Shown: positions 20,456-53,374, numbered from the stretch's first letter. The stretch is 64,000 nt of DNA from an uncultured Acidobacteriota bacterium (GCA_903845115.1 CAIMWE010000025.1:26751-90750), one strand, 5' to 3'. Notes: generated by a model not told the origin, from the sequence alone. A program made the numbers and translations.

Positions 20456-20539
20456 TTCAAGAGTCCTTTCCCCGGGGCGTTGTGCCCGAATTGTCCGTCT
20501 TGATTGCCGACTCGTCCGTGGGCCACCGCGATCGGTACC

Positions 20540-20554
20540 GCAATCGAGATGCCA
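20540..20554 (-). promoter_or_regulatory. Sigma54 (-24/-12) promoter, TGGCAT-N5-TTGC, upstream of precursor 3
   Basis: The reverse complement of 20540-20554 is TGGCATCTCGATTGC (consensus TGGCAC-N5-TTGCW; GG and GC correctly spaced). It lies in the LanC-precursor 3 intergenic region, about 85 nt upstream of the ATG. Confidence 0.5.
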
Positions 20555-20593
20555 GGGAAGGCCGTGGGCCATCCGGAGCCCCCCCGGGGGGCG

Positions 20594-21907
20594 TCACGCG
20601 GCACCGCCGCCGGAGAGGAGGAGCATCCTGTCCCATCCCGGCTCCACCGGGGTGGCCGCGGCGAGGAACGCGAGGGCGATGCCGGCGCTGCCCGTGAGGA
20701 GCCCGGGGAGACCCTTCCAGCGGATCGTTCCGTCGTCGTCCGGCCACCGGCACGTGTAGCCCGCCAGGCCGCTTCCGGGCTGCCGCATCTCTAGGGCCTT
20801 CTCGAGCCAGAAGATCCCGGCGCTCCGCAGCTCCTCGTGGCCCGTGAACTGCCAGAGGCGATTGAAGACGTGGCCCAGGCCCGCGGCTCCGTGGCACAGG
20901 CCGGCGTCGAGGACCCCGGTCTCCTCCGACCGTCGCCGAGCCGCCCGAAGGGCGATCCCCACGGCCTGCCTCTCCCACTCCGATTCGTCCGCGCTCTTCG
21001 CCGCCACGGTCAGCGCCGCCGCCACTCCGGGATCGCCGTAGCACCAGGCCGAGCGGCAGTCGCCCGGCTCGACGCCGGGGACGAGCCAGTACGGGAAGCG
21101 GGATCCCTCGCCGGACCGCCCCTGCCCCAGGAGCCACGCCACAGCGCCGTCGAGGAGTCCCCGTGCCTTCTCCCGCGAGATGTCGGCCGCCGTGATCCGT
21201 CCAAGGAGAGCGATGACGCCCGGGACTCCGTGGGCGAGGCCGAGGTTGTAGTGACCGCCCGGAGACGATTCCACGTGCGAGGGAGGCAAGAGGCTCGGAG
21301 GGGTGTGCCAGGTGAGCTCCGGGCCCTTCCGTTCCGCCCTTTCCGAGAGCCTGTCCACGATCCGCTCGAGACACCTGACCGCGGCCGGGCGGGGGAGTCG
21401 TTCGAGCGCGTAGACGCCGAAGCCGACGAGGCCGCTGACGAGGTCGTAGTCGCCCGTCCAGGGCGAGTCATCGACGACGGAGAGAAGCTCGTCGTCTATT
21501 TCGGCGGCCGGGTCGTCCGGGCCGTCCACGGGGGTCGTGACGTGCGACACGGCCCACGCCAGTCCGCTGTAGCCGCTGTAGAAGGAAGGACCCATCACGA
21601 CCGAAGCAGCCGCGTCGGCCGACTCGTTGAGGAGCTCCGAGGCCTTCTCGAGGCCGCCCGGATCGACGCCGCACTCCGCCAGGTACGCGAACAGAACTGC
21701 GAGACCGGCCGTTCCCCCGGCAAGGGACGCCGGTCGCGTTCCCCCTCCCCCTTCCGCGGGACCTTCGATCGGGTCCCAGTCTGCCAGCGGGCCGGCGAGC
21801 GTCTCGCCGATGGACCGTGCGGTGTCGAGGGCTCGGTCAGCCAGAGCTCCGTCGAGGACGGGCCTCCACGGCCTCCCTCGATTCAGGGTAACGGGAAGGT
21901 CGGGCAT
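20594..21907 (-). CDS. lanC: Lanthionine cyclase LanC
   Basis: All three LanC zinc-ligand motifs are present: GLAHGVPG (GxAHG), WCYGDPG (WCxG) and GLCHGAAG (CHG). The start is ambiguous (ATG 21907 MPDLPVTLNRG chosen; ATG 21952 and GTG 21982 are alternatives). The 3' end of precursor 4 overlaps. Confidence 0.8.
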   Translation of the reverse strand: MPDLPVTLNRGRPWRPVLDGALADRALDTARSIGETLAGPLADWDPIEGPAEGGGGTRPASLAGGTAGLAVLFAYLAECGVDPGGLEKASELLNESADAAASVVMGPSFYSGYSGLAWAVSHVTTPVDGPDDPAAEIDDELLSVVDDSPWTGDYDLVSGLVGFGVYALERLPRPAAVRCLERIVDRLSERAERKGPELTWHTPPSLLPPSHVESSPGGHYNLGLAHGVPGVIALLGRITAADISREKARGLLDGAVAWLLGQGRSGEGSRFPYWLVPGVEPGDCRSAWCYGDPGVAAALTVAAKSADESEWERQAVGIALRAARRRSEETGVLDAGLCHGAAGLGHVFNRLWQFTGHEELRSAGIFWLEKALEMRQPGSGLAGYTCRWPDDDGTIRWKGLPGLLTGSAGIALAFLAAATPVEPGWDRMLLLSGGGAA

Positions 21908-22152
21908 TGCACGGTGAACACCTGAGCGGTCGTCTTCGAGAGGGTCGGGCATCGCTCCGGCCCGGGAAGCACCGCTGGACACACCTGGGTCACCAGGGGC
22001 CTGCGGCCACCTGGTCCGACGATTCCTCCGCCATTTACTCGGTCGAGCTCGCCGTCTCCGAGCTCCCCGGGCTTCTTCCGCCCCGCGTCGAGGTCCTTGA
22101 CCGTCTCCCTCTTCAAGGAGAGTTTCTTAGGACCAGCGGCCTTCTTCGTCAC
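21883..22152 (-). CDS. lanA: Lanthipeptide precursor 4 (LanA): 42-aa leader plus 47-aa core
   Basis: GAGGAGG RBS sits 5 nt before GTG 22152, giving MTKKAAGPKKLSLKRETVKDLDAGRKKPGELGDGELDRVNGG. The core GIVGPGGRRPLVTQVCPAVLPGPERCPTLSKTTAQVFTVQCPTFPLP has 3 Cys. The track ORF start 22206 has GGAG abutting the ATG with zero spacing, so it is less likely. Confidence 0.65.
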   Translation of the reverse strand: MTKKAAGPKKLSLKRETVKDLDAGRKKPGELGDGELDRVNGGGIVGPGGRRPLVTQVCPAVLPGPERCPTLSKTTAQVFTVQCPTFPLP

Positions 22153-25183: not shown

Positions 25184-28100
25184 ATGACGCTTTCCCGGCG
25201 AGGTTTCCTCAAGGCAGGGACGGTCGGCGGAACGATCGCCCTCGGCTTCGACTTCTCCGAGGCCCGGGCCGAGTTGCGGGACCTGAAGATCTCGCGAACG
25301 ACCGAGACCCGCTCCACCTGCCCGTACTGCTCGGTCTCGTGCGGCGTCATCATCCACACGCTGGGAGACAAGGCCAAGAACGTGACCGGGTCGGTCGTCC
25401 ACGTGGAAGGGGACCCGGATCATCCGATCAACCGGGGGACCCTCTGTCCCAAGGGGGCCACGCTCAAGGAGGACATCCGGAACCCGCACCGGTTGATGGT
25501 GCCGCAGGTGCGGCGCCCGGGGTCGAGCAAGTGGGAGGAGATCTCCTGGGACGAGGCTATCGCCGGGATCGCGGGGAAGGTCAAGGAGACGCGCGACAAG
25601 ACGTTCGTCACGAAGAACGGCAAGGGGCAGACGGTCAGCCGGAATCCCGGGATGGCGGTCATCGGCGGCTGCACCGACACGAGCGAGTTCGCCTACCTCC
25701 TCTGGAAGAGCTCGATCGCGCTGGGGGCCGTCTACAGGGACCACCAAGCACGGGTTTGACACGGACCGACGGTGGCCAGTTTGGCCGCCACGTTCGGTCG
25801 GGGGGCGATGACCAACGGGTGGGTCGACATCAAGAATGCCGACGTGGTCTTCGTCATGGGCGGAAACCCCGCCGAGAACCACCCCTGCGGCTTCAAGTGG
25901 GCGATCGAGGCCCGCAAGGCGCGCGGCGCCAAGATCGTCGTCGTCGACCCGCGGTTCACCCGGACCGCCGCCGTGGCCGACGTCTACGCGCCGCTGCGCG
26001 CCGGAACCGACATCGCGTTCCTCCTCGGGATCTGCCGCTACGCGATCGAGAACAAGAAGGTCCACGAGGAGTACGTCAAGCTCCACACCAACGCGTCGGT
26101 CCTGGTCAGCGACAAGTTCGCCTTCGACGAGGGGCTCTTCTCGGGCTACGACGGCGAGAAGCGCGCCTACGACAAGGGGTCGTGGGCGTTCCGGGTCGAC
26201 GACAAGGGGATGCTCGAGACCGACCCGACGCTCCAGAACCCGCGGTCGGTCTTCCAGCTCCTCAAGAAGCACGTCGACCGGTACACGCCGGAGATGGTCG
26301 AGAAGGTCTGCGGCACGCCGAAGGACCAGTTCCTGAAGGTGGCCGAGGCGGTCAGCTCGACCGGGAACGCCCAGAAGGTCGGGACGATCCTCTACGCTCT
26401 CGGCTGGACGCAGCACTCCACCGGCGTCCAGATCATCCGGGCGTCCGGGATCCTGCAGCTCCTCCTCGGGAACGTCGGGCGGCCCGGCGGCGGCGTGAAC
26501 GCGCTCCGCGGCCACTCCAACATCCAGGGCGCCACCGACATGGGGGGCAACTTCGACGTCTACCCCGGCTACCTGAAGGCCCCCCAGGCCACGATGCCGG
26601 CGCTGAAGGACTACCTCGAGGCGAACACGCCCAAGGCTCTGACCACGGCGTCGATGAACTACAGCCAGAACACCCCGAAGTTCATGACGTCGCTCCTGAA
26701 GGCGCTCTACGGAAAGGCGGCGACGAAGGAGAACGACTTCGGCTACGGCTGGCTCCCGAAGGCGGACGGCAACTACTCCTGGCTCTTCATGTTCGACGAC
26801 ATGCTCAAGGGGAAGTCGAAGAGGGCCGACGTCGAGGAGGCCGCGCCGGAAGGGCTCTTCGCCTGGGGGATGAACCCCGTGGCGACGGGACCCAACTCCA
26901 AGAAGATGGTGGCGGCCCTGGCGAAGCTGAAGTGGCTCGTCGTGGTCGAGAACTCCGAGACCGAGACCGCCGGCTTCTGGAAGGCGCCCGCCGAGTACGA
27001 GGGCCCCGAGGCTTCCAAGATCCCCACGGAGGTCTACCTCCTCCCGGCCGCGAGCTTCGCCGAGAAGGACGGGACCTTCACGAACTCCGGCCGGTGGGTC
27101 CAGTGGAAGTGGAAGGCGGTCGACCCGCCGGGGAAGGCCAAGGCCGACCAGGAGATCCTCTCGAGGATCCTGCTGGCGGTGAAGGATCTCTACAAGAAGG
27201 AAGGGGGCGCGTTCCCCGAGCAGGTCCTGAACGTCGCCTGGAGCTACACGAACCCGGTCAGCCCGGACCTCGGGGAGGTGCTCAAGGAGATCAGCGGCAA
27301 GGCGCTGGCCGAGCTCCCCGACCCGAAGGACAAGACGAAGATCCTCAAGAACCCCGGCCAGCAGCTCGACGGGTTCGGCCAGCTGCAGGACGACGGGACC
27401 ACCTCCTGCGGCAACTGGATCTACGGCGGGGCGTTCACCGAGGCCGGGAACCTGACCCAGCGGCGCCTGGCGACCGACCCGATGGGCCTCGGGGCGTTCC
27501 ACCAGTGGGGCTTCTCGTGGCCGGCGAACCGCCGCGTCCTCTACAACCGCGCCTCGGCCGACGCCGACGGCAAGCCGTGGGATCCGACCCGCTCCGGGAT
27601 CTCCTGGAACGGCGAGAAGTGGGTCGGCGACGTCCCGGACATCAAGCCCGACTCGCCCCCCGGCACCTTCGGCGCCTTCATCATGAACCCCGAGGGACTC
27701 GGCCGGCTCTACGCGCCGAGCCTCGCCGACGGACCCTTCCCCGAGCACTACGAGGCGACGGAAGCCGCCACCGACAACGTCCTCCACCCGAAGGTGACGT
27801 CGAGCCCGGTCGTGAGGGTCTGGAAGAGCGACAAGGACGCCCTCGGCAAGAAGGAGGACTTCCCGATCGTCTGCTCGACCTACCGGCTCACCGAGCACTT
27901 CCACTTCTGGACGCAGCACAACCCGCGCCTGAACCAGGTCCAGCCCGGCTTCTTCTTCGAGATCCCGGAAGGTCTCGCGAAGGAGAAGGGGATCGCCAAC
28001 GGCCAGCAGATCAAGGTCTCCTCCGCCCGCGGGTCGATCACCGCTCTCGCCATGGTGACGAAGCGATTCCGCCCGCTGAAGGCGAACGGGAAGGAGATCT

Positions 28101-28249
28101 GGCAGATCGGCCTGCCGATCCACTGGGGCTACGCGGGGAACCCCGACCACACCGGCCCCCTGGCCAACTTCCTCACCCCGACGACCGGCGACCCGAACAC
28201 CCTGACCCCGGAGTTCAAGACCTTCCTCGTGAAGGTCGAGAAGGCGTGA
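25184..28249 (+). CDS. fdnG: Formate dehydrogenase-N alpha subunit, selenocysteine-containing (in-frame TGA at 25757-25759)
   Basis: AGGAGG RBS precedes ATG 25184. Tat signal MTLSRRGFLKAG and the 4Fe-4S motif CPYCSVSCG. The context ...HQARV-TGA-HGPTVASL matches the FdnG/FdoG Sec site (RVUHGPTV). Track ORFs 25055..25759 and 25772..28249 are two halves in one frame joined by the TGA. Molybdopterin oxidoreductase domains run through to ...FKTFLVKVEKA. Confidence 0.9.
25771..25789 (+). promoter_or_regulatory. SECIS-like hairpin immediately 3' of the fdnG UGA
   Basis: ggtggcca-gtt-tggccgcc forms an 8-bp stem (one G-U pair), starting 12 nt after the UGA. The position is appropriate for a bacterial SelB-binding element. 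Confidence 0.5.
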
Positions 28250-28259
28250 GGGGAGAGCG

Positions 28260-29141
28260 ATGACCGCCAATCTCGAGATCGTCCGCTCCTCCGCCAGCAC
28301 GTGGGGAGGGGCCTCCGGCCTCCGCTCCCTCCCGGTCGTCTCCAAGTACATCGACACCTCCATCTGCATCGGCTGCAAGTCGTGCGAGGTCTCCTGCGCG
28401 GAATGGAACGACCTCCCTCCCGTCAAGACCGTGCAGACCGGCACCTACCAGACGATGCCGGAGACCCACGCCGCGTTCTGGAACCTGATCAAGTTCCGGG
28501 AGCAGGAGCACGAAGGGGGCTTCGCCTGGCTCTTCCGGAAGGACCAGTGCATGCACTGCTCCGACCCGGGGTGCCTCACGGCCTGCCCGGCACCCGGCGC
28601 GATCGTCCAGTACGCCAACGGCATCGTCGACGTCAATGCCGATCAGTGCATCGGCTGCGGCTACTGCGCGACCGGGTGTCCCTTCGACATCCCGAAGTTC
28701 CACGAGAAGACGGCGAAGATGCAGAAGTGCACACTCTGCGTCGACCGGAGCCGCCTCGGCCTGGAGCCGGCCTGCGTCAAGAGCTGCCCGTCCGGCTGCC
28801 TCCACTACGGGACGAAGGAGGACATGCTCCTCCTCGCGGCCCAGCGGGTCGCCCATCTGAAGAAGACCGGCTTCGCCGAGGCCGCCCTCTACGACCCGCC
28901 GGGGGTCGGAGGGACGACGGTGGTCACGGTCCTCGCCTTCGGGAACCACCCGGAGTGGTACGGCCTCCCGAAGGACCCGTCCATCCCGTGGACCGTCAAG
29001 CTCTGGAAGAACGTCCTCCGGCCGTTCGGCTTCATCGCGATCGTCGGGGCGATCATCGGCGCGTTCGGACACCATCTCTACCATGGCAACAAGGGGCACA
29101 TCGACCCGGCGCCCCTCGACGACGAGCCGCCGCAGGCGTGA
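28260..29141 (+). CDS. fdnH: Formate dehydrogenase-N beta subunit (4x[4Fe-4S], C-terminal TM anchor)
   Basis: CIGCKSCEVSC, CMHCSDPGCLTACP, CIGCGYCATGCP and CTLCVDR...CVKSCP motifs, plus the C-terminal helix FGFIAIVGAIIGAFGHHLY. Confidence 0.9.
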   Translation: MTANLEIVRSSASTWGGASGLRSLPVVSKYIDTSICIGCKSCEVSCAEWNDLPPVKTVQTGTYQTMPETHAAFWNLIKFREQEHEGGFAWLFRKDQCMHCSDPGCLTACPAPGAIVQYANGIVDVNADQCIGCGYCATGCPFDIPKFHEKTAKMQKCTLCVDRSRLGLEPACVKSCPSGCLHYGTKEDMLLLAAQRVAHLKKTGFAEAALYDPPGVGGTTVVTVLAFGNHPEWYGLPKDPSIPWTVKLWKNVLRPFGFIAIVGAIIGAFGHHLYHGNKGHIDPAPLDDEPPQA

Positions 29142-29154
29142 GCGGGAGGAAACG

Positions 29155-29844
29155 ATGAGCAGCGTTCGTCACCAGATCGGCCTCGACGTCGGAGCCCTCG
29201 AGGCCCGCGACACGGAGGACGTCGTCGTCGGCAAGGAGATCATCCGCCACCGCCTCTCGTCGCGGGTCATCCACTGGCTGGTCGCCGACTTCTTCCTCCT
29301 CTGCGCCGCCACCGGCCTCCCGGTCTTCTCCCCCGTGTTCGGCTGGCTCGGCAGCCTCTTCGGGGGCCTGGCCGTCTGCCGGGTCGTCCACCCGCTCGCC
29401 GGCCTCGCCTTCTTCGCCTCGGCGGCCGTCATGTTCCGCCACTGGAGCCAGGAGATGGAGATGACCGCCCAGGAGCGCGGATGGGTCGGCCCGAAGCTCC
29501 TCGAGTACCTGCGCGACGAGGCGAATCACGACCAGATCGGCAAGTACAACGGCGGACAGAAGGTCTTCTTCTACACCGCCGCCCTCGCGGCGCTCGGCTT
29601 CCTGGGCTCCGGCGTCGTCCTCTGGTTCCCCCTGACGTTCCCGGGGGTCCTGCGCCAGATCGCGATCCTGCTGCACAACCTGACGTTCATCGCCTTTTTC
29701 ACCTCGATCGTCTTCCACGTCTACCTGGCCACCATCGCGGAGCCCGGCACCTTCAACGCGATGACCCGCGGCACCGTCTCGAAGGCTTGGGCGCGGATCC
29801 ACCACCCGAAGTGGTACCGGGAGCTGACGGGCTCCGGGAAGTAG
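29155..29844 (+). CDS. fdnI: Formate dehydrogenase-N gamma subunit (cytochrome b556)
   Basis: GGGAGGA RBS precedes ATG 29155 (MSSVRHQIGLD). Four TM helices with conserved His (RVIHWL, VVHPLAG, LLHNL, VFHVY). Confidence 0.8.
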   Translation: MSSVRHQIGLDVGALEARDTEDVVVGKEIIRHRLSSRVIHWLVADFFLLCAATGLPVFSPVFGWLGSLFGGLAVCRVVHPLAGLAFFASAAVMFRHWSQEMEMTAQERGWVGPKLLEYLRDEANHDQIGKYNGGQKVFFYTAALAALGFLGSGVVLWFPLTFPGVLRQIAILLHNLTFIAFFTSIVFHVYLATIAEPGTFNAMTRGTVSKAWARIHHPKWYRELTGSGK

Positions 29845-30636
29845 GTGACAGTCGAGGAGCGGTTCGCCCGGCGCGCCGCACGCGCCGGCGAGCTCGGGAA
29901 AGGGAACGGGGCCGCCGCGGACCTCCTGGGATTCGCGGCGGCCCTCCTCTCCGCGCAGGGGCGGCTCGGCGCCGCCTTCAGCTCGCTCCACGCCCTGGAG
30001 CCTCTCGTCGGAGGGCTTCCGGAGGACCTCGACCGGTTGATGCCGAGCCTCTCGCCGTTTCTCGAGCTCGTGGCGAGGAAGGCCCCCGACGAGCTGGCCG
30101 CCGAAGCGTCCCGCCGGGCAGCCGAGCCGGCCGCCGGCGCGAGGACGAGGCTCCTCGGCTGGTGGTCCCGCGAGGGAGAGAGCACAGAGGACTATCTTTC
30201 CCGGGCGTTCCTCCGTCCCTACCTCGAGCTCCTTGGGGCCTCGGGACTGACCGCCTCTCGGCCGCGGGCCGTCGGCGGGTGCCCGGCCTGCTCGGGACCG
30301 CCGGCACTCTCGGTCCGGCGGCCGGAGCCGGAGAGCCAGGCCGGGCGCCGGTTCCTCCTCTGCGCTCACTGCGGAGAGGAGTGGCCGTTCGCGAGGATCA
30401 GCTGCCCCTCCTGCTCCGAGGAGGAGCCGGACCGGCTCCCCTCCTTCCAGGCAGCGCAGCACCCGGGCGTGAGGATCGAGGCGTGCGAGAGCTGTCACCG
30501 CTACCTGAAGTCGATCGACCTGACGCTCGACGCCCGGCCGGTCCCCGAAGTGGACGACCTGGTCTCGGTCGTCCTCGACCTCTGGGCTCAGGAACAGGGG
30601 TTCACGCGGATCGAGCCGGGGATCGCGGGCCTCTGA
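29845..30636 (+). CDS. fdhE: Formate dehydrogenase accessory protein FdhE
   Basis: GTG start immediately after the fdnI TAG. Four CxxC pairs (CPACS...CAHCG...CPSCS...CESCH) typical of FdhE. Confidence 0.85.
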   Translation: MTVEERFARRAARAGELGKGNGAAADLLGFAAALLSAQGRLGAAFSSLHALEPLVGGLPEDLDRLMPSLSPFLELVARKAPDELAAEASRRAAEPAAGARTRLLGWWSREGESTEDYLSRAFLRPYLELLGASGLTASRPRAVGGCPACSGPPALSVRRPEPESQAGRRFLLCAHCGEEWPFARISCPSCSEEEPDRLPSFQAAQHPGVRIEACESCHRYLKSIDLTLDARPVPEVDDLVSVVLDLWAQEQGFTRIEPGIAGL

Positions 30637-34707: not shown

Positions 34708-35124
34708 TCACTCCGTCGGCCGGTTCGACGACGCCCGGTAGTTCCGGATGACCGGCGTCGCCGCGGCCACCGCCGCCGCGGAGACCGCCGTCAGGAGGTA
34801 GAGCCAGCCCTTCGTCTCCGCGTGGAAGAACGTCAGCCCCGAGAGGGCGACCGCCGCCAGCGTCATCGCGCTCCGCGAGACGAGGAGGACGTTCCGCCGG
34901 TCGCGGCGGTCGGCCACCACGCCGCCCCAGAGGGAGAAGACGATCACCGGGACGACCCGGACGAGGCCCAGCAGGCCGATCGCCAGGGGCGACCCGGTGA
35001 GCAGGTAGACCTGCCAGTTGATGGCCACGACCTGCATCTGGGAGCCGGTCTAGGAGACGAGCTGGGCTCCCCAGAACCTTCGGAAGTCCTGGAACTTCAG
35101 GGCGTGGTACGGACGGTGGCTCAT
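34708..35124 (-). pseudogene. MFS transporter (EntS/enterobactin-exporter-like) fragment with in-frame TAG and 3' truncation
   Basis: Translation from ATG 35124 gives MSHRPYHALKFQDFRRFWGAQLVS-TAG(35052-35050)-TGSQMQVVAINWQVYLLTGSPLAIGLLG... It is the canonical MFS N-terminus but interrupted by a stop. The reading frame ends after about 3 TM helices at 34708, with the CDF gene starting at 34678. Confidence 0.55.
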
Positions 35125-35176: not shown

Positions 35177-35386
35177 TCAGGCGCGATCGACCTTGAACCC
35201 GATCTTGATCGTCACCTGGAACTCGGCGACCGCGCCGTCCTGGATCCGGCCGCGCTGCTCCACGACCTCGAACCACGACATGTTGCGGATGGTCTTCGAG
35301 GCCTCCGCGACAGCGCTCTTCACCGCTTCCGAGAAACTGACCGTGGAGGTCCCCACGACCTCGACTTTCTTGTACAGATTGCTCAT
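35177..35386 (-). CDS. Dodecin (flavin-binding dodecameric protein), 69 aa
   Basis: MSNLYKKVEVVGTSTVSFSEAVKSAVAEASKTIRNMSWFEVVEQRGRIQDGAVAEFQVTIKIGFKV matches the dodecin family consensus. AAGAGGAG RBS sits 6 nt before ATG 35386. Confidence 0.75.
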   Translation of the reverse strand: MSNLYKKVEVVGTSTVSFSEAVKSAVAEASKTIRNMSWFEVVEQRGRIQDGAVAEFQVTIKIGFKVDRA

Positions 35387-35494
35387 CGCCATCTCCTCTT
35401 TCTGAGATTTGGTATCGACTCCATCCTGATTGTAGTCCGGATGGCCCGGAATCCCTCCGGGCCGGTTTCTCGTAAACTCAATGGGGAGGGCTCC

Positions 35495-35749
35495 ATGAAG
35501 GTCCGGATCACCTACTGCACCGTCTGAAACTACCTGCCGAGGGCCGCGAGTCTCGCGGCCGAGCTAGAAACGCAGCTGGGTGCCGACTCCACCCTCGTCC
35601 CCGGCTCCGGCGGCGTCTTCGAAGTCGTCGTGGACGGCCGGAACGTCTTCTCGAAGAAGGAGGCCGGCCGGTTCCCGGAACCGGGCGAGATCTCGAAGAA
35701 GCTGGGGGAAAAACGGACCGGCGGCTCCCCCACCCATCAACATCACTAA
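35495..35749 (+). CDS. selW: SelW/Rdx-family selenoprotein (CxxU motif; in-frame TGA at 35525-35527). The ORF track misses it.
   Basis: GGGGAGGG RBS precedes ATG 35495. MKVRITYCTV-U-NYLPRAASLAAELETQLGADSTLVPGSGGVFEVVVDGRNVFSKKEAGRFPEPGEISKKL... fits the Rdx fold pattern (IxYCxxU ... GxFEVxVxGxxVxSK...GxFP). Stop is TAA at 35747. Track ORF 35580..35888 is an overlapping alternate frame. Confidence 0.7.
35542..35560 (+). promoter_or_regulatory. SECIS-like hairpin 14 nt downstream of the selW UGA
   Basis: ggccgcgag-t-ctcgcggcc is a perfect 9-bp inverted repeat (apical loop AGUCU if the top pair opens), immediately 3' of the in-frame TGA. Confidence 0.55.
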
Positions 35750-35761
35750 GGAGGAGAAACC

Positions 35762-36262
35762 ATGGAACGTACAGGCGTCATCACCTTCCTCGGCGGCCCC
35801 CTCACCCTCGTCGGACCGGAGATCCAGGTCGGGCAGAAGGCCCCCGACTTCACCGTCCTGGACAACGGTCTCGCGCCGAAGTCTCTGAAGGACTTCGCCG
35901 GCAAGACGGTCGTCATCAGCGTCACTCCGTCGCTCGACACGCCCGTCTGCGACGCCCAGCTCCGGAAGTTCAACGACTCCGCGACCAAGCTCGCCAGCGA
36001 CGTCGTCGTGCTGAACGTCAGCATGGACCTGCCGTTCGCCAACAAGCGCTTCTGCTCCGTCGCCGGGATCGAGAAGGCGGTCACGCTGAGCGACCACAGG
36101 GACGCCTCGTTCGGGACGGCCTACGGGGTCCTGATCAAGGAGCTGCGGCTCCTCGCCCGTTCGATCTTCGTCGTCGGCAAGGACGGCATCGTCAAGTACT
36201 CCGAGATCGTCCCCGAGGTCACCCACAACCCGTCCTTCGACAAGGCCCTCGCCGCCATCTGA
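35762..36262 (+). CDS. tpx: Thiol peroxidase Tpx (atypical 2-Cys peroxiredoxin)
   Basis: AAGGAGGAG RBS precedes ATG 35762. The peroxidatic Cys lies in SVTPSLDTPVCDAQ and the resolving Cys in FCSVAG. Length 166 aa. Confidence 0.9.
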   Translation: MERTGVITFLGGPLTLVGPEIQVGQKAPDFTVLDNGLAPKSLKDFAGKTVVISVTPSLDTPVCDAQLRKFNDSATKLASDVVVLNVSMDLPFANKRFCSVAGIEKAVTLSDHRDASFGTAYGVLIKELRLLARSIFVVGKDGIVKYSEIVPEVTHNPSFDKALAAI

Positions 36263-39434: not shown

Positions 39435-40403
39435 TCAGGGGATCAGCCGGAACGCGGAATCCTGCCCCGCCGCCAGGAGGATGGCGCGGAGCGCCAGCCC
39501 TCCCACGAGGACCAGGGCGGGGGTGACCAGGGTGAACGGCAGGTGGCGCTTCGCCTCCACCGCCTCCATGAGGAGCGGCACGACGAGGCCGAGGACGACG
39601 ACGAGGGACCAGAACACGGGGGTGTACGGCCCGCCGAGGAAGTTGGAGGCCGCGAACCGCGCGCTCTCGGTCCCGTACCCGAAGCCGATCAACATCAGGA
39701 GAATCAGCACCAGCTCGGTCCCGATGGCGTTCACGTCCCAGCGGACGATCCGCTTCCGCTCCTCCTCGTGGAGGCCCGTGAGGAGGAGGAACGCCGCGCC
39801 GGTCGAGAGGCCCGACACCAGGAAGAGGGGCCCGAGGAGGGCGCTGTTCCACTGGAGGCGCGCCGCCATCGTCCCCAGGAGGAGGCCGGTGTAGACGCCG
39901 AGGCCGAGGCCGATGAAGAAGACCCCGGTCAGGATCTCGCGGCGGCGCTCGATCGCGTGCTTCTCGACCCGGTCGTACAGCCCTTCGAGGTTCTTCGGGA
40001 CCCACGACCGGACGAAGCTCCGGCCGGAGTCGTCGAGCGAGCCGAGGCCGAAGACGAAGGCGGCCGGGTAGACGGCCACCAGGATCCAGGATCCCCAGGA
40101 CATGGGCGAGGCGAGCTGGAAGCGCGTGTAGAAGCGCCAGACATGGAACGGGTACTCGAGGTCGAGGAAGAGCGCCCCCATGCCCAGGGAGAGGATCCCG
40201 AGGGCGACGAAGGGGGCGGTCCGGAAGATCGGCGAGGAGGGCTTTCCGTGCCGCAGCTCCAGGAGCGCCGACAGAGAGAGGATCCCGGCCACCATCCCTC
40301 CGAGGAAGAGATAGACCGTGATCTGCCAGCCCCAGATCGCGAGCCCCGGGTCGATCAGGTGGTTGGCGCGGGTGGTGACCGATTCGAGGAGTGTCGTGTT
40401 CAT
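39435..40403 (-). CDS. Polysulfide/thiosulfate reductase membrane anchor, NrfD/PsrC family
   Basis: Eight predicted TM helices, 322 aa, NrfD-family profile (WGWQITVYLFLGGMVAG...). Confidence 0.8.
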   Translation of the reverse strand: MNTTLLESVTTRANHLIDPGLAIWGWQITVYLFLGGMVAGILSLSALLELRHGKPSSPIFRTAPFVALGILSLGMGALFLDLEYPFHVWRFYTRFQLASPMSWGSWILVAVYPAAFVFGLGSLDDSGRSFVRSWVPKNLEGLYDRVEKHAIERRREILTGVFFIGLGLGVYTGLLLGTMAARLQWNSALLGPLFLVSGLSTGAAFLLLTGLHEEERKRIVRWDVNAIGTELVLILLMLIGFGYGTESARFAASNFLGGPYTPVFWSLVVVLGLVVPLLMEAVEAKRHLPFTLVTPALVLVGGLALRAILLAAGQDSAFRLIP

Positions 40404-40413
40404 CGCTGCCGCC

Positions 40414-40962
40414 TCACACCAGGAAGAAGACGTTCGGGTCGGCCCCCGACTCGGGGTGGTTCACCTTCGACTTCCGCTTCCTCAGGATCTGCGACACGGC
40501 GGACGCCGGGTCGTTGCGGTCGCCCAGGGTCAGCGTCCCCGTCGGGCAGACGCCGACGCAGGCCGGCTGCAGCCCCTTCTGGACCCGGTGGAGGCAGAAG
40601 GTGCACTTGTCGACGTACCCCTTCGGGTGGACGTACCGGGCGTCGTACGGGCAGCCCGCGATGCAGGCCTTGCAGCCCGTACACTTGCCGTGGGTCACCA
40701 GGACCACCCCCCCCTCGGCAATGTTGCTGGCGCCGGTCGGGCAGACCGAGACGCAGGGGGCGTCGGAGCAGTGGTTGCACCGTTCCGACCGGATCTCGGC
40801 CGAAAGGTCCGGGAACTCGCCGCGGACCTCCTCGACGATCCAGTCGCGGCAGAACCCGTCCGGCACGTCGTTCTCGCTCTTGCAGGCGAGGACGCACGCC
40901 TTGCACCCGACGCAGGTGCGCGTGTCGACGGTCATCGCGTAACGCTTCTTGCTCGCGCTCAT
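40414..40962 (-). CDS. 4Fe-4S ferredoxin-type electron-transfer subunit (PsrB/PhsB/DmsB family)
   Basis: CVGCKACVLAC, CNHCSDAPCVSVCP, CTGCKACIAGCP and CTFCLHR...CVGVCP motifs. Confidence 0.85.
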   Translation of the reverse strand: MSASKKRYAMTVDTRTCVGCKACVLACKSENDVPDGFCRDWIVEEVRGEFPDLSAEIRSERCNHCSDAPCVSVCPTGASNIAEGGVVLVTHGKCTGCKACIAGCPYDARYVHPKGYVDKCTFCLHRVQKGLQPACVGVCPTGTLTLGDRNDPASAVSQILRKRKSKVNHPESGADPNVFFLV

Positions 40963-40965
40963 CGC

Positions 40966-43179
40966 TCAGGCCCTCTCGACCGTGACGAAGTTGACGCTCA
41001 TCCCGGTCGACCCGGCCAGAGGGTCGACGGCGATCTTCGTGACGAGCCTGGAGTCGTCCATCCCTCGCCCCTTCGCGAACTTCAGCCCCGGGCTCGAATG
41101 GCCGTAGCCGTGGACGACGAAGACGCAGTCGTGACGGATCCGCTGGGTCGCCTTGAGCCGCACGGGCTCGGAGCGGACGCCGTCCTGGTTGACGAGAACC
41201 ACCCTGTCGCCGTTCGAGAGGCCCCTCTCCCGCGCGACCTTGGCGCTCAGCCAGACCTCGTTCTCGTTGGTGACCTCGGAGAGGAAGCGGTTGTTCGTCG
41301 TCCGCCCGAAGGTGTGCGTGGGGGTCCGGCCGAAGAGGAGCCGGAACTGTCCGTCGGCCGGCTGGGGATGCCGGGTGTATTCCGGCATCGGGGAGGCTCC
41401 GGCCTCGGCCATCCTCTTCGAGTAGAGCTCGATCTTCTTCGAGGGGGTGGCGAAGGTCAGCTCGAGGCCGTCCTCGGTGGTGACCGGGACTCTCTTCCCC
41501 CGGATGACTCCCTTGGCCTTCAGGAGGTCGAAGTCGTAACCGCCCTTCCGGAGCCGCGCCTCGACCATCTTCCCCGCGTCGTCCCAGGGGAAGTACGCCC
41601 CGAGCTCCATCCGGTTCGCGAGCTCCTTCGCGATCCACCAGCCCGGCTTGCTCTCGTAGAGCGGGTCGACGACCGGCTGCCGGATCGCGAGGAACGGCTC
41701 GCGCCAGGGGGTCGGCCCGGCGTCGTCCCACCGCTCGAGGTAAGTCGCCTCCGGGAGGACGACGTCGGCGTAGCCGGTGATCTCGGCCGGGAGGACGTCG
41801 ATGGCGACCATCAGGTCGAGGTGCTGGGCCGCCTCGATCACCTGCTGGCGCTGCGGGAGCGCCTGGATGAGGTTCGTGCCGTAGACGATCCACCCCTTGA
41901 TGGGACATCCGCTGGTCATGATCTTGCCGGGCACGGTCGCGTCGCAGACGCCGTGCGAGAGGACCTCGTCGGCGAACGGGTAGACCGTGCCGTCGGGGTG
42001 ATCCTGGGCCGTCTTCGGCGGCGCCGCGTAATCGGGACAGGGGTACTTCGGCACGGGCATCGAGGCGGGGATGAAGATCCCGCCGCGCCGGCCCCAGGAG
42101 CCCAGGAGCGCGTTGAGAATCGCGATGGCGCGCGACCTCTGGGTGTCGTCGCCGTACCAGGTCGTGTGCCGGCCGGGGTGGACGAGCGAGGCCGGGCGGG
42201 CCCCGGCGATGAAGCGGGCCGTCTCGACGATCTTCTCCGGCGGGATCGTCGTTTCTGTGAAGGCCCACTCCGGCGTCTTGTCCTCCAGGTGCTTCCTCAG
42301 CTCCGGGAGGCCGGTCGCGTACTTCTCGAGGTAGGCCGCGTCGTAGAGCTCCTCCTTCACGATCACGTGCATCCAGGCGAGGAGGAGGGCCAGGTCGGTG
42401 CCCGGCTTGATCGGGAGCCAGTGGCGGGCCTTCCCGGCGGCCGTGGAGAACCGGGGGTCGACGACGACCACCTCGGCCCCCTTCGCGATCGCCCTGGCGA
42501 AGTCCTGCACCTGGGTGTTGTGCATGTTCTCGCCCAGGTGCGACCCGATGAGCGTCAGGACCCTCGAGTTCTCGATGTCGAGGACCTCCGGGGAGCCGAG
42601 CGACGACCCGAAGGTGAGGTTGAAGCCGACCTCGCGGGGGCCGCGGCACTGGCCGTACGACGGGGCGGTCACGTTCCCGCTCCCGTAGGCGAAGAGGAGG
42701 TGCTTGAAGAACGACCCGCCGTAGCCGTGCGAGAAGAGGGCCACCTTGTCCGGCCCGCAGTCCCTCTTGATCTTCATCAGCTTTTCGGCCGTGAAGTCGA
42801 GGGCCTTCGCCCAGGAGACCTCCTCGAAGTCCTGCCCGCCCCGCTTGTTCGATCTCCGGAGGAGGGGCTTCTTCAGACGGTCGGGGTCGTACAGGAGGCC
42901 CATGCCGCCGGTCCCGCGCGGACAGAGGTGGCCCCGGGAGAGCGGGTGGTCGGGGTTGCCGACGATCTTCGTCACCCGGCCGTTCCGGACGTGGGCCAGG
43001 ACGCCGCACTTCCAGAAACAGAGCTCGCAGAACGTCGGGACGACCTTGTCACCGTCGGTGTTCGGGTCTTCCACCGCGTCCCGGTCGAGCCCCCAGAACT
43101 TGTTCACGAAGCCGGATCCGACGGTTGCGGCCCCGACGGTGGCTCCGGAGATCTTGATGAATTCGCGCCGGCTCGTCAT
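40966..43179 (-). CDS. Tat-exported molybdopterin oxidoreductase catalytic subunit, polysulfide/thiosulfate reductase (PsrA/PhsA) family
   Basis: GGAGGTGG RBS precedes ATG 43179. Tat signal MTSRREFIKISGATVGAATV and the N-terminal FeS motif CELCFWKCG. MopB domains are similar to the second paralog at 51157. Confidence 0.85.
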   Translation of the reverse strand: MTSRREFIKISGATVGAATVGSGFVNKFWGLDRDAVEDPNTDGDKVVPTFCELCFWKCGVLAHVRNGRVTKIVGNPDHPLSRGHLCPRGTGGMGLLYDPDRLKKPLLRRSNKRGGQDFEEVSWAKALDFTAEKLMKIKRDCGPDKVALFSHGYGGSFFKHLLFAYGSGNVTAPSYGQCRGPREVGFNLTFGSSLGSPEVLDIENSRVLTLIGSHLGENMHNTQVQDFARAIAKGAEVVVVDPRFSTAAGKARHWLPIKPGTDLALLLAWMHVIVKEELYDAAYLEKYATGLPELRKHLEDKTPEWAFTETTIPPEKIVETARFIAGARPASLVHPGRHTTWYGDDTQRSRAIAILNALLGSWGRRGGIFIPASMPVPKYPCPDYAAPPKTAQDHPDGTVYPFADEVLSHGVCDATVPGKIMTSGCPIKGWIVYGTNLIQALPQRQQVIEAAQHLDLMVAIDVLPAEITGYADVVLPEATYLERWDDAGPTPWREPFLAIRQPVVDPLYESKPGWWIAKELANRMELGAYFPWDDAGKMVEARLRKGGYDFDLLKAKGVIRGKRVPVTTEDGLELTFATPSKKIELYSKRMAEAGASPMPEYTRHPQPADGQFRLLFGRTPTHTFGRTTNNRFLSEVTNENEVWLSAKVARERGLSNGDRVVLVNQDGVRSEPVRLKATQRIRHDCVFVVHGYGHSSPGLKFAKGRGMDDSRLVTKIAVDPLAGSTGMSVNFVTVERA

Positions 43180-43224
43180 GCCCACCTCCAAGAGAAGACC
43201 CAGAATCGGTTCACGACTCTCCTC

Positions 43225-43240
43225 TTCAAGAAGCGGGCCA
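43225..43240 (-). promoter_or_regulatory. Sigma54-like -24/-12 motif TGGCCC-N5-TTGAA upstream of psrA (non-canonical -12)
   Basis: The reverse complement of 43225-43240 is TGGCCCGCTTCTTGAA, about 48 nt upstream of the psrA ATG. The same 16-mer pattern recurs upstream of the octaheme operon (48917-48934). GG-N10-GA rather than GG-N10-GC. Confidence 0.3.
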
Positions 43241-43436
43241 CCCACCAAACAACAGCTTTTCCCAACAAATCCGGTCGTATTGCCGGTTCACATTCCGCGC
43301 GGCTGAAACAACTCGTTTCGTCTGAAACATCGTGGTTCAGGCCGGGCCCTCCCGCTCGGTCCGACGCTCTCCGAGCCTCGCCTTCCGGTGCCGACAGCCC
43401 GGGATCCGCGTGTTCAGATGGATCGCGATCGTTATC

Positions 43437-46034: not shown

Positions 46035-46565
46035 TCACTTCCCCTGCTTCTGGGCGATCCAGAGCCCGCGAGCCAGATACGCGAACAGGTACCCGGACCC
46101 GAAGATCGCCATCATCGTGACGAACCCGGCGGTCGAGAGGACCGCCATGCCGCTGAGGGCCGCGCCGCTCGTGCAACCCCGCGCGAGCTGCGCGCCGATC
46201 CCGAAGAGGGCGCCCCCGAGAATCGCGAAGAGCCACCGGGTCTTCGTGGCGACCCGGGGCCCGGCCTCGGTCGTCCAGCGGAGGCGGTCGGAGACCAGGC
46301 CGGAGGCGAAGGCCCCGATCAGGACGCCGGCCACCTCGAAGACGAGCCAGCCCTTGAGCGGGCTCTCCTTCCCCGCACCGACGTACTGACTGTAGAAGGG
46401 CGAGCGGGCCGCGTGCGCCGGGGCGACGGCGTCGACGGCTGCCACCACCACGTTCTTCACCGCGCCGCTGGCCCCCAGGCCGCGCCCGGTGACGAAAATC
46501 GTCGCGAGGAGGACGAGGCCGAGGAGGAACCCGGCCAGGTAGGGGTTCATCACCTTGTTGTTCAT
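46035..46565 (-). CDS. YeeE/YedE-family transporter, small half (paralog of 38887..39414)
   Basis: Start at ATG 46565 (MNNKVMNPYLAGFLLG...), with the ARGCTSGAALSG motif. The upstream part of track ORF 46035..47024 is alternate-frame. Confidence 0.65.
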   Translation of the reverse strand: MNNKVMNPYLAGFLLGLVLLATIFVTGRGLGASGAVKNVVVAAVDAVAPAHAARSPFYSQYVGAGKESPLKGWLVFEVAGVLIGAFASGLVSDRLRWTTEAGPRVATKTRWLFAILGGALFGIGAQLARGCTSGAALSGMAVLSTAGFVTMMAIFGSGYLFAYLARGLWIAQKQGK

Positions 46566-47236
46566 TCGTTCCCTTTCACGAGGACGAGCACGGGCGTTCC
46601 GGCGGCGGGAGGCGTCGCGTGGACCGGTTCGTCTCTTTCCAGGTCCTCCCATCCGGTCAGCATCGCCTTGAGGTTCGCGGTGACGGTGTGCCCGGTCGTC
46701 ATCAGATAGAGGTGCGCGATGAGGAAGGCCAGGAGGAGAAAGGCGCCCGCCGTGTGGACGAGCGCGATCAGCTCGAGCCCCCCGACGTTCAGCCCGACGA
46801 CCTCGTGCCGGGCCGGATAGCGGTAGAACATGTAGAGCAGGCCGGAGACCGCGACCACGGGGATCACGAGGAGCTTCAGCCCGGCGTACGTCAGCTTCTG
46901 GAGCGGGTTGAGCTTGCTGAGGACCGTCTTCTTCGTCGGGTGCGGGGCGTTCCGGAAGATCCCGAAGAGGTAATAGTCGGCCTGGGCCCGCAGGTTCTTC
47001 CAGGTCGGGACGTACTGGCGCCACTCTCCCGTCGTCGCGTGCCAGAAGATGGCGAAGACGATCAGGACGAGGAACCCCTTCGCCGCCAGGCCGTGGACCC
47101 GCACCGCCTGCTCGAAGCCGAAGAAGCGAATCGACCCGTGGATCTCGAAGCCGGTGACCGCGAGCAGCGCGATCAGGGCTGCCTGGCTCCAGTGCCAGAA
47201 GCGCTCGAACGCCTTGTAGACGTACTGCCTGTTCAT
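46562..47236 (-). CDS. Membrane b-type dihaem cytochrome (PhsC / Ni-Fe hydrogenase cytochrome b family)
   Basis: Four TM helices with conserved His (FWHWSQ, RVHGLA, IFWHATT, LVHTAG, IAHLYLM). It overlaps the octaheme gene stop, which is operon-like. Confidence 0.6.
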   Translation of the reverse strand: MNRQYVYKAFERFWHWSQAALIALLAVTGFEIHGSIRFFGFEQAVRVHGLAAKGFLVLIVFAIFWHATTGEWRQYVPTWKNLRAQADYYLFGIFRNAPHPTKKTVLSKLNPLQKLTYAGLKLLVIPVVAVSGLLYMFYRYPARHEVVGLNVGGLELIALVHTAGAFLLLAFLIAHLYLMTTGHTVTANLKAMLTGWEDLERDEPVHATPPAAGTPVLVLVKGNE

Positions 47237-47237
47237 C

Positions 47238-48803
47238 TCACTCTCCTCCGTTCCGGTGTCCGGCCATGAACCGGGCTCCCCCGTGGACCACGACGCCGAG
47301 AAGGGTCAGGCCGAGCAGGCCCTGGCCGATCCCGTCCAGCCACCCCTTGCGGTCCCGGCCCGGCATGTAGAAGCCCTTCAGCGCCGCGAGCCGTCCCTTT
47401 TCCCTCGTGTGGCACTCGTTGCACCGGACGGTCTCCGCCTTCGGCGACACCATGTGGTTGAGGGGCCAGCTCATCTCCGTGCTCGCGAATCCGTAGCTTC
47501 CGCTGTAAGGGAGGTCGATCTCGTGCATCCCCGCGATCGCCGCCTTGTTCCAGTCGAATTCGCCCCAGAAGCCGCCGTCACCCGGTGTGGACGAGTAGAG
47601 CTTCGGCTGGATGACGTACGAGTACTTCGTGTCGTAGATCTGGCGGCCACGGTGGACCTTGACCGGGATGATCTTGGAGTCGGGGTCGTCGTAGGCCCCG
47701 TGCAGCTCGTTCATCCTGAGGGGCACCGACGGGTCGAACTTCTCCCCGACGAGGTAGTGCGAGGCAGTGCCGTTGAACCAGGCGTATTCCGGCTGGACGT
47801 TCGTGCCCCAGACGAACGAACCCTTGATCGACATGTAGACGTCCGTCCCCTTTGCGTCCTTTTCCTCGTATGGCTTTCCGTCCCTGAGCTTCCCCGCGGT
47901 CGACCAGTCCCAGACGAGCTTGGTCGGGTTGACCTTGGCGTACCTGGGGATGTGACAGGCCTGACAGGCCACCTTGTAGCCGTGGTCGTTCAGGACGTCG
48001 TCTGCGTGGGGCATTCCCGAGTGGCACGTCTCGCACTCCACGCGGTTCCGGTTCATGGAGGAGATCGAGTAGGCCTTGCCGAGGATCTGGTGCTTCTCGG
48101 CGGTGTGGCAGTCGACGCACTGCAGGTCCACGCCGTCCGAGCCCATGTGGACGTCCACCTCGCGGGAGGGGTCGAACTGGGCCTTCTCGAGGTCCCCGTG
48201 CTTGACGTTGTTCCCACCGCCGCCGAAGAAGTGGCAGGTCCCGCAGTTGGTCCGGGTCGGCTTCCCCACGTGCTGGGCGACGTTCGCGAGGTCGATGCCG
48301 GAGTCGGGCATCCCCGCCCCGCCCGATTTCTTCACGTAGGTCGAGGTTCCGTCGTGGCAGGCGAGACAGTCGACGTTCAGCGGATCCTTGAAGTCGAAGT
48401 TCGCGTCCCCCCAGCCGTACCCGATGTGGCACTTGTTGCAGCTGGCCTCGCTCCCGGAGATCCCGATACAGAAGTTGTTCAGGACGTTCTTCTTCCCGAC
48501 CGGGCGAATCCCCTTCCCCTCGACGTACTCGCTCCGCTCCCAGTTCCAGTGGGTCGAGGCCATCACCTCGACCTGCCTCCCGTTGTGGCAGGAGATGCAG
48601 GCCGCGGTCACGTCCTGGGGCCGCTTGAACGGCGCCTTCAGCTGGGCGAACTTGGAGTGGTCCACCGACGGCTTCGCCTTCTTGGCGAGGTGCTGCTTCA
48701 GCTCCTCGAGCGGCGTCAGCTCTCGTCCCGGACGCCGCAACGCGACGAAGACCATGCCCCCAAGGGCCCCGATCAAGAGCAGCGAGAACAGTATGCGTTT
48801 CAT
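47238..48803 (-). CDS. Octaheme c-type cytochrome, octaheme tetrathionate reductase (OTR) family
   Basis: Signal/anchor MKRILFSLLLIGALGGMVFVAL. Eight CxxCH motifs (CISCH, CNKCH, CLACH, CGTCH, CVDCH, CETCH, CQACH, CNECH). About 520 aa with a C-terminal hydrophobic helix. Confidence 0.7.
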   Translation of the reverse strand: MKRILFSLLLIGALGGMVFVALRRPGRELTPLEELKQHLAKKAKPSVDHSKFAQLKAPFKRPQDVTAACISCHNGRQVEVMASTHWNWERSEYVEGKGIRPVGKKNVLNNFCIGISGSEASCNKCHIGYGWGDANFDFKDPLNVDCLACHDGTSTYVKKSGGAGMPDSGIDLANVAQHVGKPTRTNCGTCHFFGGGGNNVKHGDLEKAQFDPSREVDVHMGSDGVDLQCVDCHTAEKHQILGKAYSISSMNRNRVECETCHSGMPHADDVLNDHGYKVACQACHIPRYAKVNPTKLVWDWSTAGKLRDGKPYEEKDAKGTDVYMSIKGSFVWGTNVQPEYAWFNGTASHYLVGEKFDPSVPLRMNELHGAYDDPDSKIIPVKVHRGRQIYDTKYSYVIQPKLYSSTPGDGGFWGEFDWNKAAIAGMHEIDLPYSGSYGFASTEMSWPLNHMVSPKAETVRCNECHTREKGRLAALKGFYMPGRDRKGWLDGIGQGLLGLTLLGVVVHGGARFMAGHRNGGE

Positions 48804-48916
48804 GACTCCATCCCCTCGAATCGCCTCGGTCAGTTCGATCCTCGAGCGACGGGCCTAGGTCCCCTGCCCGGCGCCCGCCAGGGGCTCTCCCCTTCCTAGA
48901 CGACGCAACCCTCCCA

Positions 48917-49495: not shown

Positions 49496-49680
49496 GGATC
49501 GATTCTCCCATTCGGGCGCTCCGGTTCACCGGGTGCCCCTGGCAGCCTGCTTGCAAGAAGCGGTCCGGACCCCTGTCTTTCTCGTCGGGTACTCGTCTCG
49601 AAAACGGAACTGACCCGCTCTTCGCCGGAGCGCCGGGCCACCCTTGGTAATAAGATTCCACCGAATATGGAGGGTTGATC

Positions 49681-50586: not shown

Positions 50587-50628
50587 GCGACGGCCCCAGT
50601 TCCTGACGGCCTGAAGAGCCGGCACATT

Positions 50629-50668
50629 CCGGACGGCGGCCCAGCAACGCCGCCGTCCGGTCGCTTTG
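50629..50668 (+). terminator. Intrinsic terminator after the rhodanese gene
   Basis: ccggacggcggc-ccagcaac-gccgccgtccgg (12-bp perfect GC-rich stem) followed by tcgctttgaa. Confidence 0.5.
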
Positions 50669-50697
50669 AAAGAGATCACTCGTGTAAGGAGAAGCCG

Positions 50698-53361: not shown

Positions 53362-53374
53362 AGGGAGAAGCCCA

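Follow-up and report, generated by a model that had tools for sequence, protein, structure and literature searches.

A SelW-like selenoprotein gene, predicted to be read through an in-frame UGA, adjoining tpx in an uncultured Acidobacteriota bacterium

Introduction

A short reading frame located immediately upstream of a thiol peroxidase gene (tpx), in DNA from an uncultured Acidobacteriota bacterium, is interrupted at its eleventh codon by a TGA triplet, and that arrangement raises the question of whether the triplet is a stop that divides or destroys the gene, or is instead decoded as selenocysteine (Sec) during the synthesis of a complete protein. The DNA in question (referred to throughout as 'the window') corresponds to the whole stretch of 64,000 nucleotides that was analysed, numbered from its first position. 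A preliminary description of the locus, made without database searches (the sequence-only reading), had proposed that the frame represents an unannotated selenoprotein gene of the SelW/Rdx family, equipped with a hairpin of the type (SECIS) that directs Sec insertion.

The family itself is not new. SelW-like proteins with a CxxU motif were found to be the most abundant selenoprotein family in Sargasso Sea data, and the same study, published in 2005, illustrated a bacterial SECIS element residing within the SelW-like gene and described the role of the bacterial proteins as unclear (PMC1088965). In 2006, SelW-like proteins were included among those families for which Cys homologues are scarce or absent in bacteria that use Sec (PMC1794560). 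The gene described here is therefore a member of a family known since 2005, and leaves the existing knowledge of Sec decoding unchanged; what follows concerns its identification, its conservation and its surroundings. The analysis indicates that positions 35495-35749 very probably encode a SelW-like (Rdx) selenoprotein, in which the UGA at position 35525 would be recoded in a SelB-dependent manner by way of a hairpin at 35542-35560. The features that bear upon that reading, together with other loci in the window, are collected in Table 1.

Table 1. Features of the window discussed in the text, with positions counted from its first nucleotide
Feature	Position	Strand	Details
Candidate SelW-like / Rdx-family selenoprotein CDS	35495..35749	+	84 codons, predicted Sec at codon 11, TAA stop
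Shine-Dalgarno-like GGGGAGGG	35483..35490	+	4 nt upstream of ATG; read directly from sequence
Predicted CxxU redox motif TGC-ACC-GTC-TGA (Cys8, Sec11)	35516..35527	+	Sec codon = TGA 35525-35527
Putative bacterial SECIS hairpin	35542..35560	+	8-bp stem GGCCGCGA/UCGCGGCC, GUC loop (or 7 bp, AGUCU loop)
Leader of the SelW-like gene: terminator-like hairpin (35442-35464) and T-rich tail, then predicted hairpin with its 3' arm over the SD	35442..35491	+	consensus scan, folds
tpx, thiol peroxidase (atypical 2-Cys peroxiredoxin)	35762..36262	+	NF001808 201.5 bits vs cutoff 123; Pfam Redoxin, AhpC-TSA
Dodecin gene, divergent	35177..35392	-	PF07311 97.3 bits; NF043052 100 bits vs cutoff 75
fdnG, formate dehydrogenase-N alpha subunit	25184..28249	+	TGA 25757-25759 at catalytic Sec position, motif ARV*HGPTV
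SECIS element of fdnG	25754..25812	+	Rfam RF01989 SECIS_3, 67.6 bits vs gathering score 63, E 1.2e-13
Large protein with thiopeptide-type bacteriocin biosynthesis domain	16305-19739	-	TIGR03891 216 bits
LanC/LanM-like cyclase-domain protein	20594-22126	-	adjoins the bacteriocin-domain protein
Second PhsA-like molybdoenzyme with NrfC/NrfD-type subunits	39435-43287	-	
Octaheme tetrathionate-reductase-family cytochrome	47238-48854		TIGR04315 588 bits; cytochrome b subunit 46562-47305
Rhodanese, weak ExtH match	49654-50586		
PhsA-like molybdopterin oxidoreductase with Fe-S and cytochrome b subunits	51025-54920		
ExtM c-type cytochrome	54824-56773		NF040943 893.8 bits vs cutoff 800
Cytochrome b, ExtP-like match	58083-58925		213 bits, under 290 cutoff

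The reading frame and its protein family

Translation from the ATG at position 35495 produces a frame that extends to a TAA at 35747-35749, and within which the TGA at 35525-35527 is the sole interruption. The ten residues that precede the TGA (MKVRITYCTV) are followed beyond it by NYLPRAASLAAEL...EISKKL..., and the entire segment from the TGA to the TAA reads NYLPRAASLAAELETQLGADSTLVPGSGGVFEVVVDGRNVFSKKEAGRFPEPGEISKKLGEKRTGGSPTHQHH. Both the course of this frame as far as position 35749 and the presence of a good ribosome-binding site ahead of its start codon had been claimed in the sequence-only reading; translation confirmed the first, and the Shine-Dalgarno-like GGGGAGGG the second. The GGGAGGG block of that element is kept in two closely related loci, designated L081 and L082. 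The ORF track had been said to contain an overlapping frame in an alternate register, and a mechanical listing of ORFs indeed returned only alternate-frame ORFs at the gene, together with a single same-frame fragment of 39 residues that begins at an internal GTG (35630).

Profile searches were conducted with the TGA read as Cys, using the resulting 84-residue sequence as the query. That sequence was matched by the Pfam Rdx model (PF10262) with 76.6 bits against a cutoff of 22.6 (E 1.7e-21, over profile positions 1-72 of 74), by TIGR02174 (CXXU_selWTH) with 63.8 bits against a cutoff of 34.2, and by the NCBIfam equivalog NF041051 ("SelT/SelW/SelH family (seleno)protein") with 100 bits against a cutoff of 88. 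All three scores lie above the curated cutoffs and thereby bear out the proposed assignment to the Rdx/SelW family and its CxxU motif. The PF10262 match covers residues 2-70 of the product and crosses the TGA, and the segment ITY-C8-T-V-U11 aligns with the CxxC motif of two proteins of solved structure (3DEX and 2FA8), as well as with the C-x-x-TGA of 78 related loci described below.

The relatives of the product that were recovered by sequence from the PDB correspond to 3DEX, 2FA8, 2OKA, 2OJL, 2OBK, 2P0G, MIEN1 (2LJK) and mouse SelW (2NPB), and their similarity suggests that the SelW-like product adopts a thioredoxin-like alpha/beta Rdx fold. The Cys-form structures (3DEX, which is SAV_2001; 2FA8, which is Atu0228; 2OKA; 2OJL; 2OBK; and 2P0G) align with the window protein over residues 2-71, with E values from 1e-12 to 6e-7, and share with it a core of the form YCxxC/U...PRAA...GG.F.V...G...F; they differ from it in that Cys occupies the position of the predicted Sec, in that they are approximately 20 residues longer, and in that no SECIS is needed for their synthesis. 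Mammalian SelW (2NPB, E 0.0035) and MIEN1 (2LJK, E 6e-5) belong by sequence to the same Rdx family and carry CxxU or CxxC at the same place, but they resemble the window protein only weakly in sequence. Eukaryotic SelW further depends upon a SECIS of a different type, located in the 3'-UTR and acting with SBP2 and eEFSec.

When set beside the bacterial SelW-like selenoproteins described by PF10262, TIGR02174 and NF041051, the predicted product shares their size (about 70-85 residues), an N-terminal I-x-Y-C-x-x-U with Sec encoded by TGA, and a SECIS hairpin that lies just 3' of the TGA and within the coding region, in a family in which Sec forms outnumber Cys forms. No essential difference was found, with tpx being an unusual neighbour for the copy in the window. 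The C-terminus of that copy is 10-11 residues longer (GSPTHQHH...) than those encoded by L081 and L082. Comparison of positions 35716-35749 with the two relatives indicated that the window lacks a stretch of approximately 29 nucleotides found in L081 (and longer still in L082). That stretch contains the TGA at which translation ends in those relatives, so that the frame of the window extends instead to a TAA that overlaps the ribosome-binding site of tpx.

A search of protein databases returned 49 relatives (P0001-P0049), most of which are 50-63 residues in length and begin just past the position of the TGA, and five of which are full-length entries that print W at the Sec position. This pattern agrees with the earlier expectation that standard gene callers would miss the gene, most database relatives being either post-TGA fragments or sequences carrying W, and the SelW-like family is systematically mis-annotated in metagenome-derived protein sets. 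Some of the fragment entries are still named 'selenoprotein W-related protein'. The description of the gene as 'unannotated' holds in part: naive ORF finding does miss it, but the NF041051 equivalog is passed, so pipelines that employ the NCBI models should name it. The term is thus dependent on the pipeline, and the family itself is known.

The same database entries provide an argument for a different reading, according to which the locus comprises two translation units (a leader peptide of 10 codons, followed by a shorter Rdx-like protein synthesized from an internal start) and the downstream hairpin acts as a translational or transcriptional regulator rather than as a SECIS. Automated calls for most relatives (P0001, P0002, P0004 and others) do begin past the TGA, and start-proximal hairpins can regulate translation. 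The first in-frame start past the TGA, however, is the GTG at 35630, which would leave a product of 39 residues; the Rdx model depends on the first strand, encoded ahead of the TGA, and on the CxxC/U motif, to which the TGA itself belongs; and the I-x-Y-C peptide that precedes the TGA is kept across phyla. The shortened calls, moreover, start at varying internal codons, as would be expected if they were artefacts of treating the TGA as a stop. Division of the locus into two units is, on this evidence, extremely unlikely, and the continuous frame that crosses the TGA is the reading followed below.

Conservation of the TGA codon

A scan of a genome collection, in which each species was represented by one genome, identified at least 570 loci that encode relatives of the SelW-like protein, and the best 80 of these were read directly from DNA. 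The loci are distributed among Acidobacteriota (including Thermoanaerobaculia), Eisenbacteria, Desulfobulbia, Planctomycetota, Myxococcota, Gemmatimonadota, Verrucomicrobiota, Chloroflexota and other taxa. The codon aligned with the TGA of the window is itself TGA in 78 of those best 80 loci and TGC in one (L063), with the remaining locus (L032) being deleted at its 5' end; a conserved [IV]-x-[IV]-x-Y-C-x-x block precedes the codon in all 78. The situation that had been named in advance as counting against the reading, namely relatives with neither Cys nor Sec at this position and a frame not conserved beyond the TGA, was not what was encountered among these best 80 loci (TGA in 78/80, TGC in 1/80). 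The TGA is also kept in the closer relatives L081, whose protein is 84% identical, and L082, and the changes that distinguish the window from those two loci are mostly synonymous on both sides of the codon.

Two loci depart from this pattern. In a homologue at positions 63-281 of L083 (JACXTT011388776.1), the TGA is replaced by TTA (Leu), which is one base off, and a SECIS-type hairpin (GGCUGCC-AGU-CUGGCGGCC) is kept; the TTA reflects either an error in sequencing or a mutation that has recently inactivated the gene. In L032 (positions 2985-3240 of CALFNC010000143.1, from an uncultured Acidobacteria bacterium), a deletion of approximately 99 bp, roughly equivalent to 35452-35550 of the window, has cost the SelW-like gene its ribosome-binding site, ATG, CxxU motif and 5' SECIS arm. 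That locus is the closest relative within the genome collection (its dodecin, CDF and FadL proteins being 90%, 89% and 81% identical to those of the window); tpx is absent from it, and fadL lies directly next. Either the gene has decayed there or the deletion is an artefact of assembly.

Observations of this kind bear on the possibility that the gene in the window is a pseudogene, in which a nonsense mutation converted the Cys codon of an ancestral CxxC Rdx gene (TGC to TGA) and from which no full-length protein is made. A Cys form does exist, in L063, and the family shows signs of decay in this lineage, in the form of the 5' loss in L032, the TTA of L083, and the truncation of a neighbouring MFS gene in the window. 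Against such an origin, the presence of TGA in 78 of 80 loci over many phyla points to an ancestral and selected state; the flanking codons vary only synonymously or conservatively among close relatives; and the ribosome-binding site, the start codon and a covarying hairpin are all intact. We consider loss of function through nonsense mutation to be very unlikely, and decoding of the UGA as Sec to be the reading that the comparison of relatives favours.

A hairpin downstream of the UGA

An inverted repeat (GGCCGCGAG / CTCGCGGCC, spanning 35542-35560) begins 14 nucleotides past the UGA, and had originally been described as perfect over 9 bp. That description is correct for the DNA; since the two 9-nucleotide arms are split by a single T, the RNA can pair over only 8 bp (closing a GUC loop) or 7 bp (closing an AGUCU loop). 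The isolated hairpin was calculated to have a minimum free energy (MFE) of -16.3 kcal/mol. Folding of the single sequence produced an unexceptional z-score (-0.31), and resampling of synonymous codons (preserving the peptide and employing the codon usage of the window) generated an 8-bp stem in 152 of 2000 trials (7.6%), with the MFE again unexceptional. The hairpin alone is statistically unremarkable in sequence of 70% G+C, and the case for it consequently rests on comparative data.

Those data were derived from an ungapped alignment of 79 sequences, extending 55 nucleotides from the UGA, in which the helix occupies columns 18-25 and 29-36. The hairpin is found at identical columns, and at an equal distance past the TGA, in all 78 TGA loci, and 22 nucleotides (positions 4-25) separate the UGA from the loop both in the window and in every aligned locus. 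Across the 79 sequences, 92.1% of the cells in the helix are paired, as compared with 20-54% in controls whose 3' partners were slid by 1-3 columns. Double-sided changes occur in five of the eight stem pairs (50 double-changed cells), and the covariation score of 0.345 exceeds both that of shuffled alignments (0.147, with 0 of 500 reaching the observed value) and those of the slid controls (0.02-0.12). At pair 21/33, the variants convert C-G to G-C, U-A or U-G, and at pair 22/32 they convert G-C to U-A; the window itself carries a swap from C-G to G-C at pair 24/30, accomplished via synonymous GCG and CTC codons. The same helix was predicted independently by RNAalifold. Within the loop, G26 never varies, and at least 90% of the 79 sequences carry U27.

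The stem overlaps the codons of a conserved peptide (RAA[S/G]LAA), so conservation of the hairpin could come partly from the protein, with the constraints on RNA and protein being entangled; in some lineages, the peptide changes from AA-S-L-AA to AS-S-L-GA and pairing is retained. The one Cys-form locus among the 80, L063, forms four of the eight hairpin pairs and displays GG where the Sec forms carry the loop GU, a loss of pairing that fits the SECIS reading and is, as a single case, suggestive. Taken together, the family match that extends across the TGA and the comparative evidence raise the observation far above chance.

A consensus for bacterial SECIS elements, as quoted in PMC13188914, calls for a loop of 3-9 nucleotides on a stem of 4-16 bp, a G within the first two positions of the loop (usually then followed by G or U), a spacing of 16-37 nucleotides and an MFE at or below -7.5 kcal/mol. 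The hairpin in the window agrees with all four rules: its loop of 3 or 5 nucleotides caps 8 or 7 bp, respectively, the loop reads (A)GUC(U), the spacing is 22 nucleotides and the MFE is -16.3 kcal/mol. The original proposal of a SECIS hairpin thus draws support both from covariation and from published rules. A search of positions 35380-35800 against Rfam returned no match to any SECIS family, even at E <= 10. The Rfam models do not seem to cover the SelW-type hairpin, because the only Rfam SECIS match in the window is the fdnG element; this lowers the standing of the hairpin as a member of an Rfam family rather than its standing as a SECIS.

Comparison with that second element (of the E. coli fdhF-type and FDH-N class, RF01989) reveals a common plan, in which a stem-loop starts shortly past the UGA and presents an apical loop of the form A-GU-N-U (...GGCC-AGUUU-GGCC... 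in fdnG, and ...CGCG-AGUCU-CGCG... in the SelW-like gene). Counted from the U of the UGA, the loop GU occupies positions 26-27 in the SelW-like gene and 23-24 in fdnG. Unlike SECIS elements of the RF01989 type, the SelW-like hairpin is without a long lower stem, as well as without an Rfam match.

Selenocysteine decoding and the genetic code

The formate dehydrogenase gene fdnG had been cited, in the sequence-only reading, both as a Sec-containing gene in its own right and as a sign that the organism decodes UGA as Sec. The first of these statements is upheld by the location of its TGA at the Sec position and by matches to TIGR01553 and to SECIS_3, with the former returning 1369.5 bits over the full length of the protein when fdnG is read through the TGA; the second is supported by the same TGA and by the Rfam match. 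The fdnG gene would accordingly provide evidence, independent of the SelW-like gene, that UGA is decoded as Sec in this host. It forms part of a complete formate dehydrogenase-N locus (25184-30636) that also contains fdnH (TIGR01582, 351.6 bits), fdnI and an FdhE-like gene, with fdhD situated apart from it at 8960-9943. No tRNA, and hence no tRNA-Sec (selC), was found in a search of the 64-kb window, and a scan of 34 window ORFs against NCBIfam identified no selA, selB or selD. The Sec machinery of the host is thus a prediction, to which the Sec-type fdnG and its recognised SECIS lend indirect support.

An altered genetic code, in which TGA would be read throughout the organism as Trp or Gly (codes 4 or 25) and the motif would correspond to CxxW or CxxG, was also considered. 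The entries P0006, P0007, P0015, P0023 and P0028 do print W at the Sec position; most likely, that residue was introduced by callers using a code in which TGA specifies Trp. Of the 34 genes assigned with confidence in the window, 25 (tpx among them) end in TGA, which indicates recoding as Sec rather than an altered code, and an altered code was rejected on that basis. Additionally, the lineages known to reassign TGA are of low G+C content, whereas this genome is approximately 70% G+C. A scan for in-frame TGA codons flanked on both sides by coding-type GC3 flagged only fdnG, at its known Sec position, with its other matches corresponding to adjacent same-frame genes or to the antisense strand of fdnG. 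The SelW-like gene was missed by the scan, which is thus insensitive to short upstream segments, and its TGA rests on translation and on family matches. The probability of a reassigned code appears to be next to negligible.

Genomic neighbourhood

The tpx gene begins 12 nucleotides past the SelW-like stop codon, with its ribosome-binding site overlapping the 3' end of the SelW-like gene. The order dodecin, SelW-like gene, tpx recurs in L081 and L082 (whose Tpx proteins are 93% and 92% identical, respectively), and dodecin is found in the same position in L032, L081 and L082. The divergent orientation of the SelW-like gene and dodecin, which had been pointed out beforehand, was verified by the assignment of dodecin to 35177-35392 on the minus strand. 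Beyond L081 and L082, a tblastn search for Tpx within 3 kb (E <= 1) found no match in the 79-80 loci, and a corresponding search of 80 loci recovered dodecin, CDF and FadL only in L032. The genes that lie downstream of SelW-like genes elsewhere encode NAD kinase, an M16 peptidase, proline dehydrogenase and others.

The proposal that the SelW-like gene and tpx form a small redox operon therefore fared unevenly. The gap of 12 nucleotides and the pairing of the two genes in two close relatives speak for it; 79 other loci show no such pairing, and L032, the closest relative that the genome collection offered, retains neither tpx nor the 5' end of its SelW-like gene. Co-transcription of the two genes in this organism is plausible from their arrangement. 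A conserved functional unit of the two was rejected, their adjacency being restricted to the close relatives L081 and L082.

In the leaders of the window, L081 and L082, a hairpin is predicted that would cover the Shine-Dalgarno element, and a single U-to-C change among these three close sequences keeps its pairing; the leader hairpin may serve in translational control. Upstream, between the CDF gene and dodecin, the window contains a fragment of an MFS transporter (34708-35037, minus strand; 109 residues, corresponding to approximately 36-131 of the 419-position EntS model), the counterpart of which in L081 is an MFS gene of 421 residues. The fragment is probably the remnant of a deletion.

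Several other loci in the window were characterized in passing. The region spanning 49654-58925 contains a cluster that resembles a selenite/tellurite reduction (ext) operon, and it shares the window with the two selenoprotein genes. The genes that lie between 39435 and 48854 suggest a region devoted to the respiration of sulfur or selenium oxyanions. On the minus strand, positions 16305-22126 may correspond to a locus for RiPP biosynthesis.

Proposed mechanism and implications

The most likely account of the SelW-like gene would involve the following events. A ribosome translating its mRNA would meet the UGA at codon 11, and the hairpin at 35542-35560, with its apical-loop GU located 22 nucleotides past the UGA, would serve as a bacterial SECIS. 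That element would recruit SelB-GTP-Sec-tRNA(Sec), Sec would be inserted, and translation would proceed to the TAA that ends at position 35749. The predicted product is a small cytoplasmic protein of 84 residues, with Cys8-x-x-Sec11 positioned at the end of its first strand; that pair would cycle between the selenol/thiol and selenenylsulfide states, as expected of a thiol-dependent redox protein, and the gene would most likely be co-transcribed with tpx. We infer the insertion of Sec, the binding of SelB, the redox cycle and the joint transcription with tpx from the sequence of this gene and from that of its relatives.

A more specific, and rather doubtful, idea is that the acidobacterial SelW-like protein has come to serve as a redox partner dedicated to Tpx, for example by reducing the Cys-Cys disulfide of the peroxidase via its CxxU motif, with both proteins produced from one mRNA and the leader hairpin gating the ribosome-binding site. 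If that were true, the partnership with Tpx would represent the first concrete biochemical role for bacterial SelW-like proteins.

The locus shows cleanly how a real gene can be truncated or missed by calling methods based on stop codons, and both fdnG and the SelW-like gene merit annotation as selenoprotein genes of the window. The latter would add an Acidobacteriota-like member to a widespread family, and the lineage-specific pairing of that gene with tpx may be usable in testing the role of bacterial SelW-like proteins.
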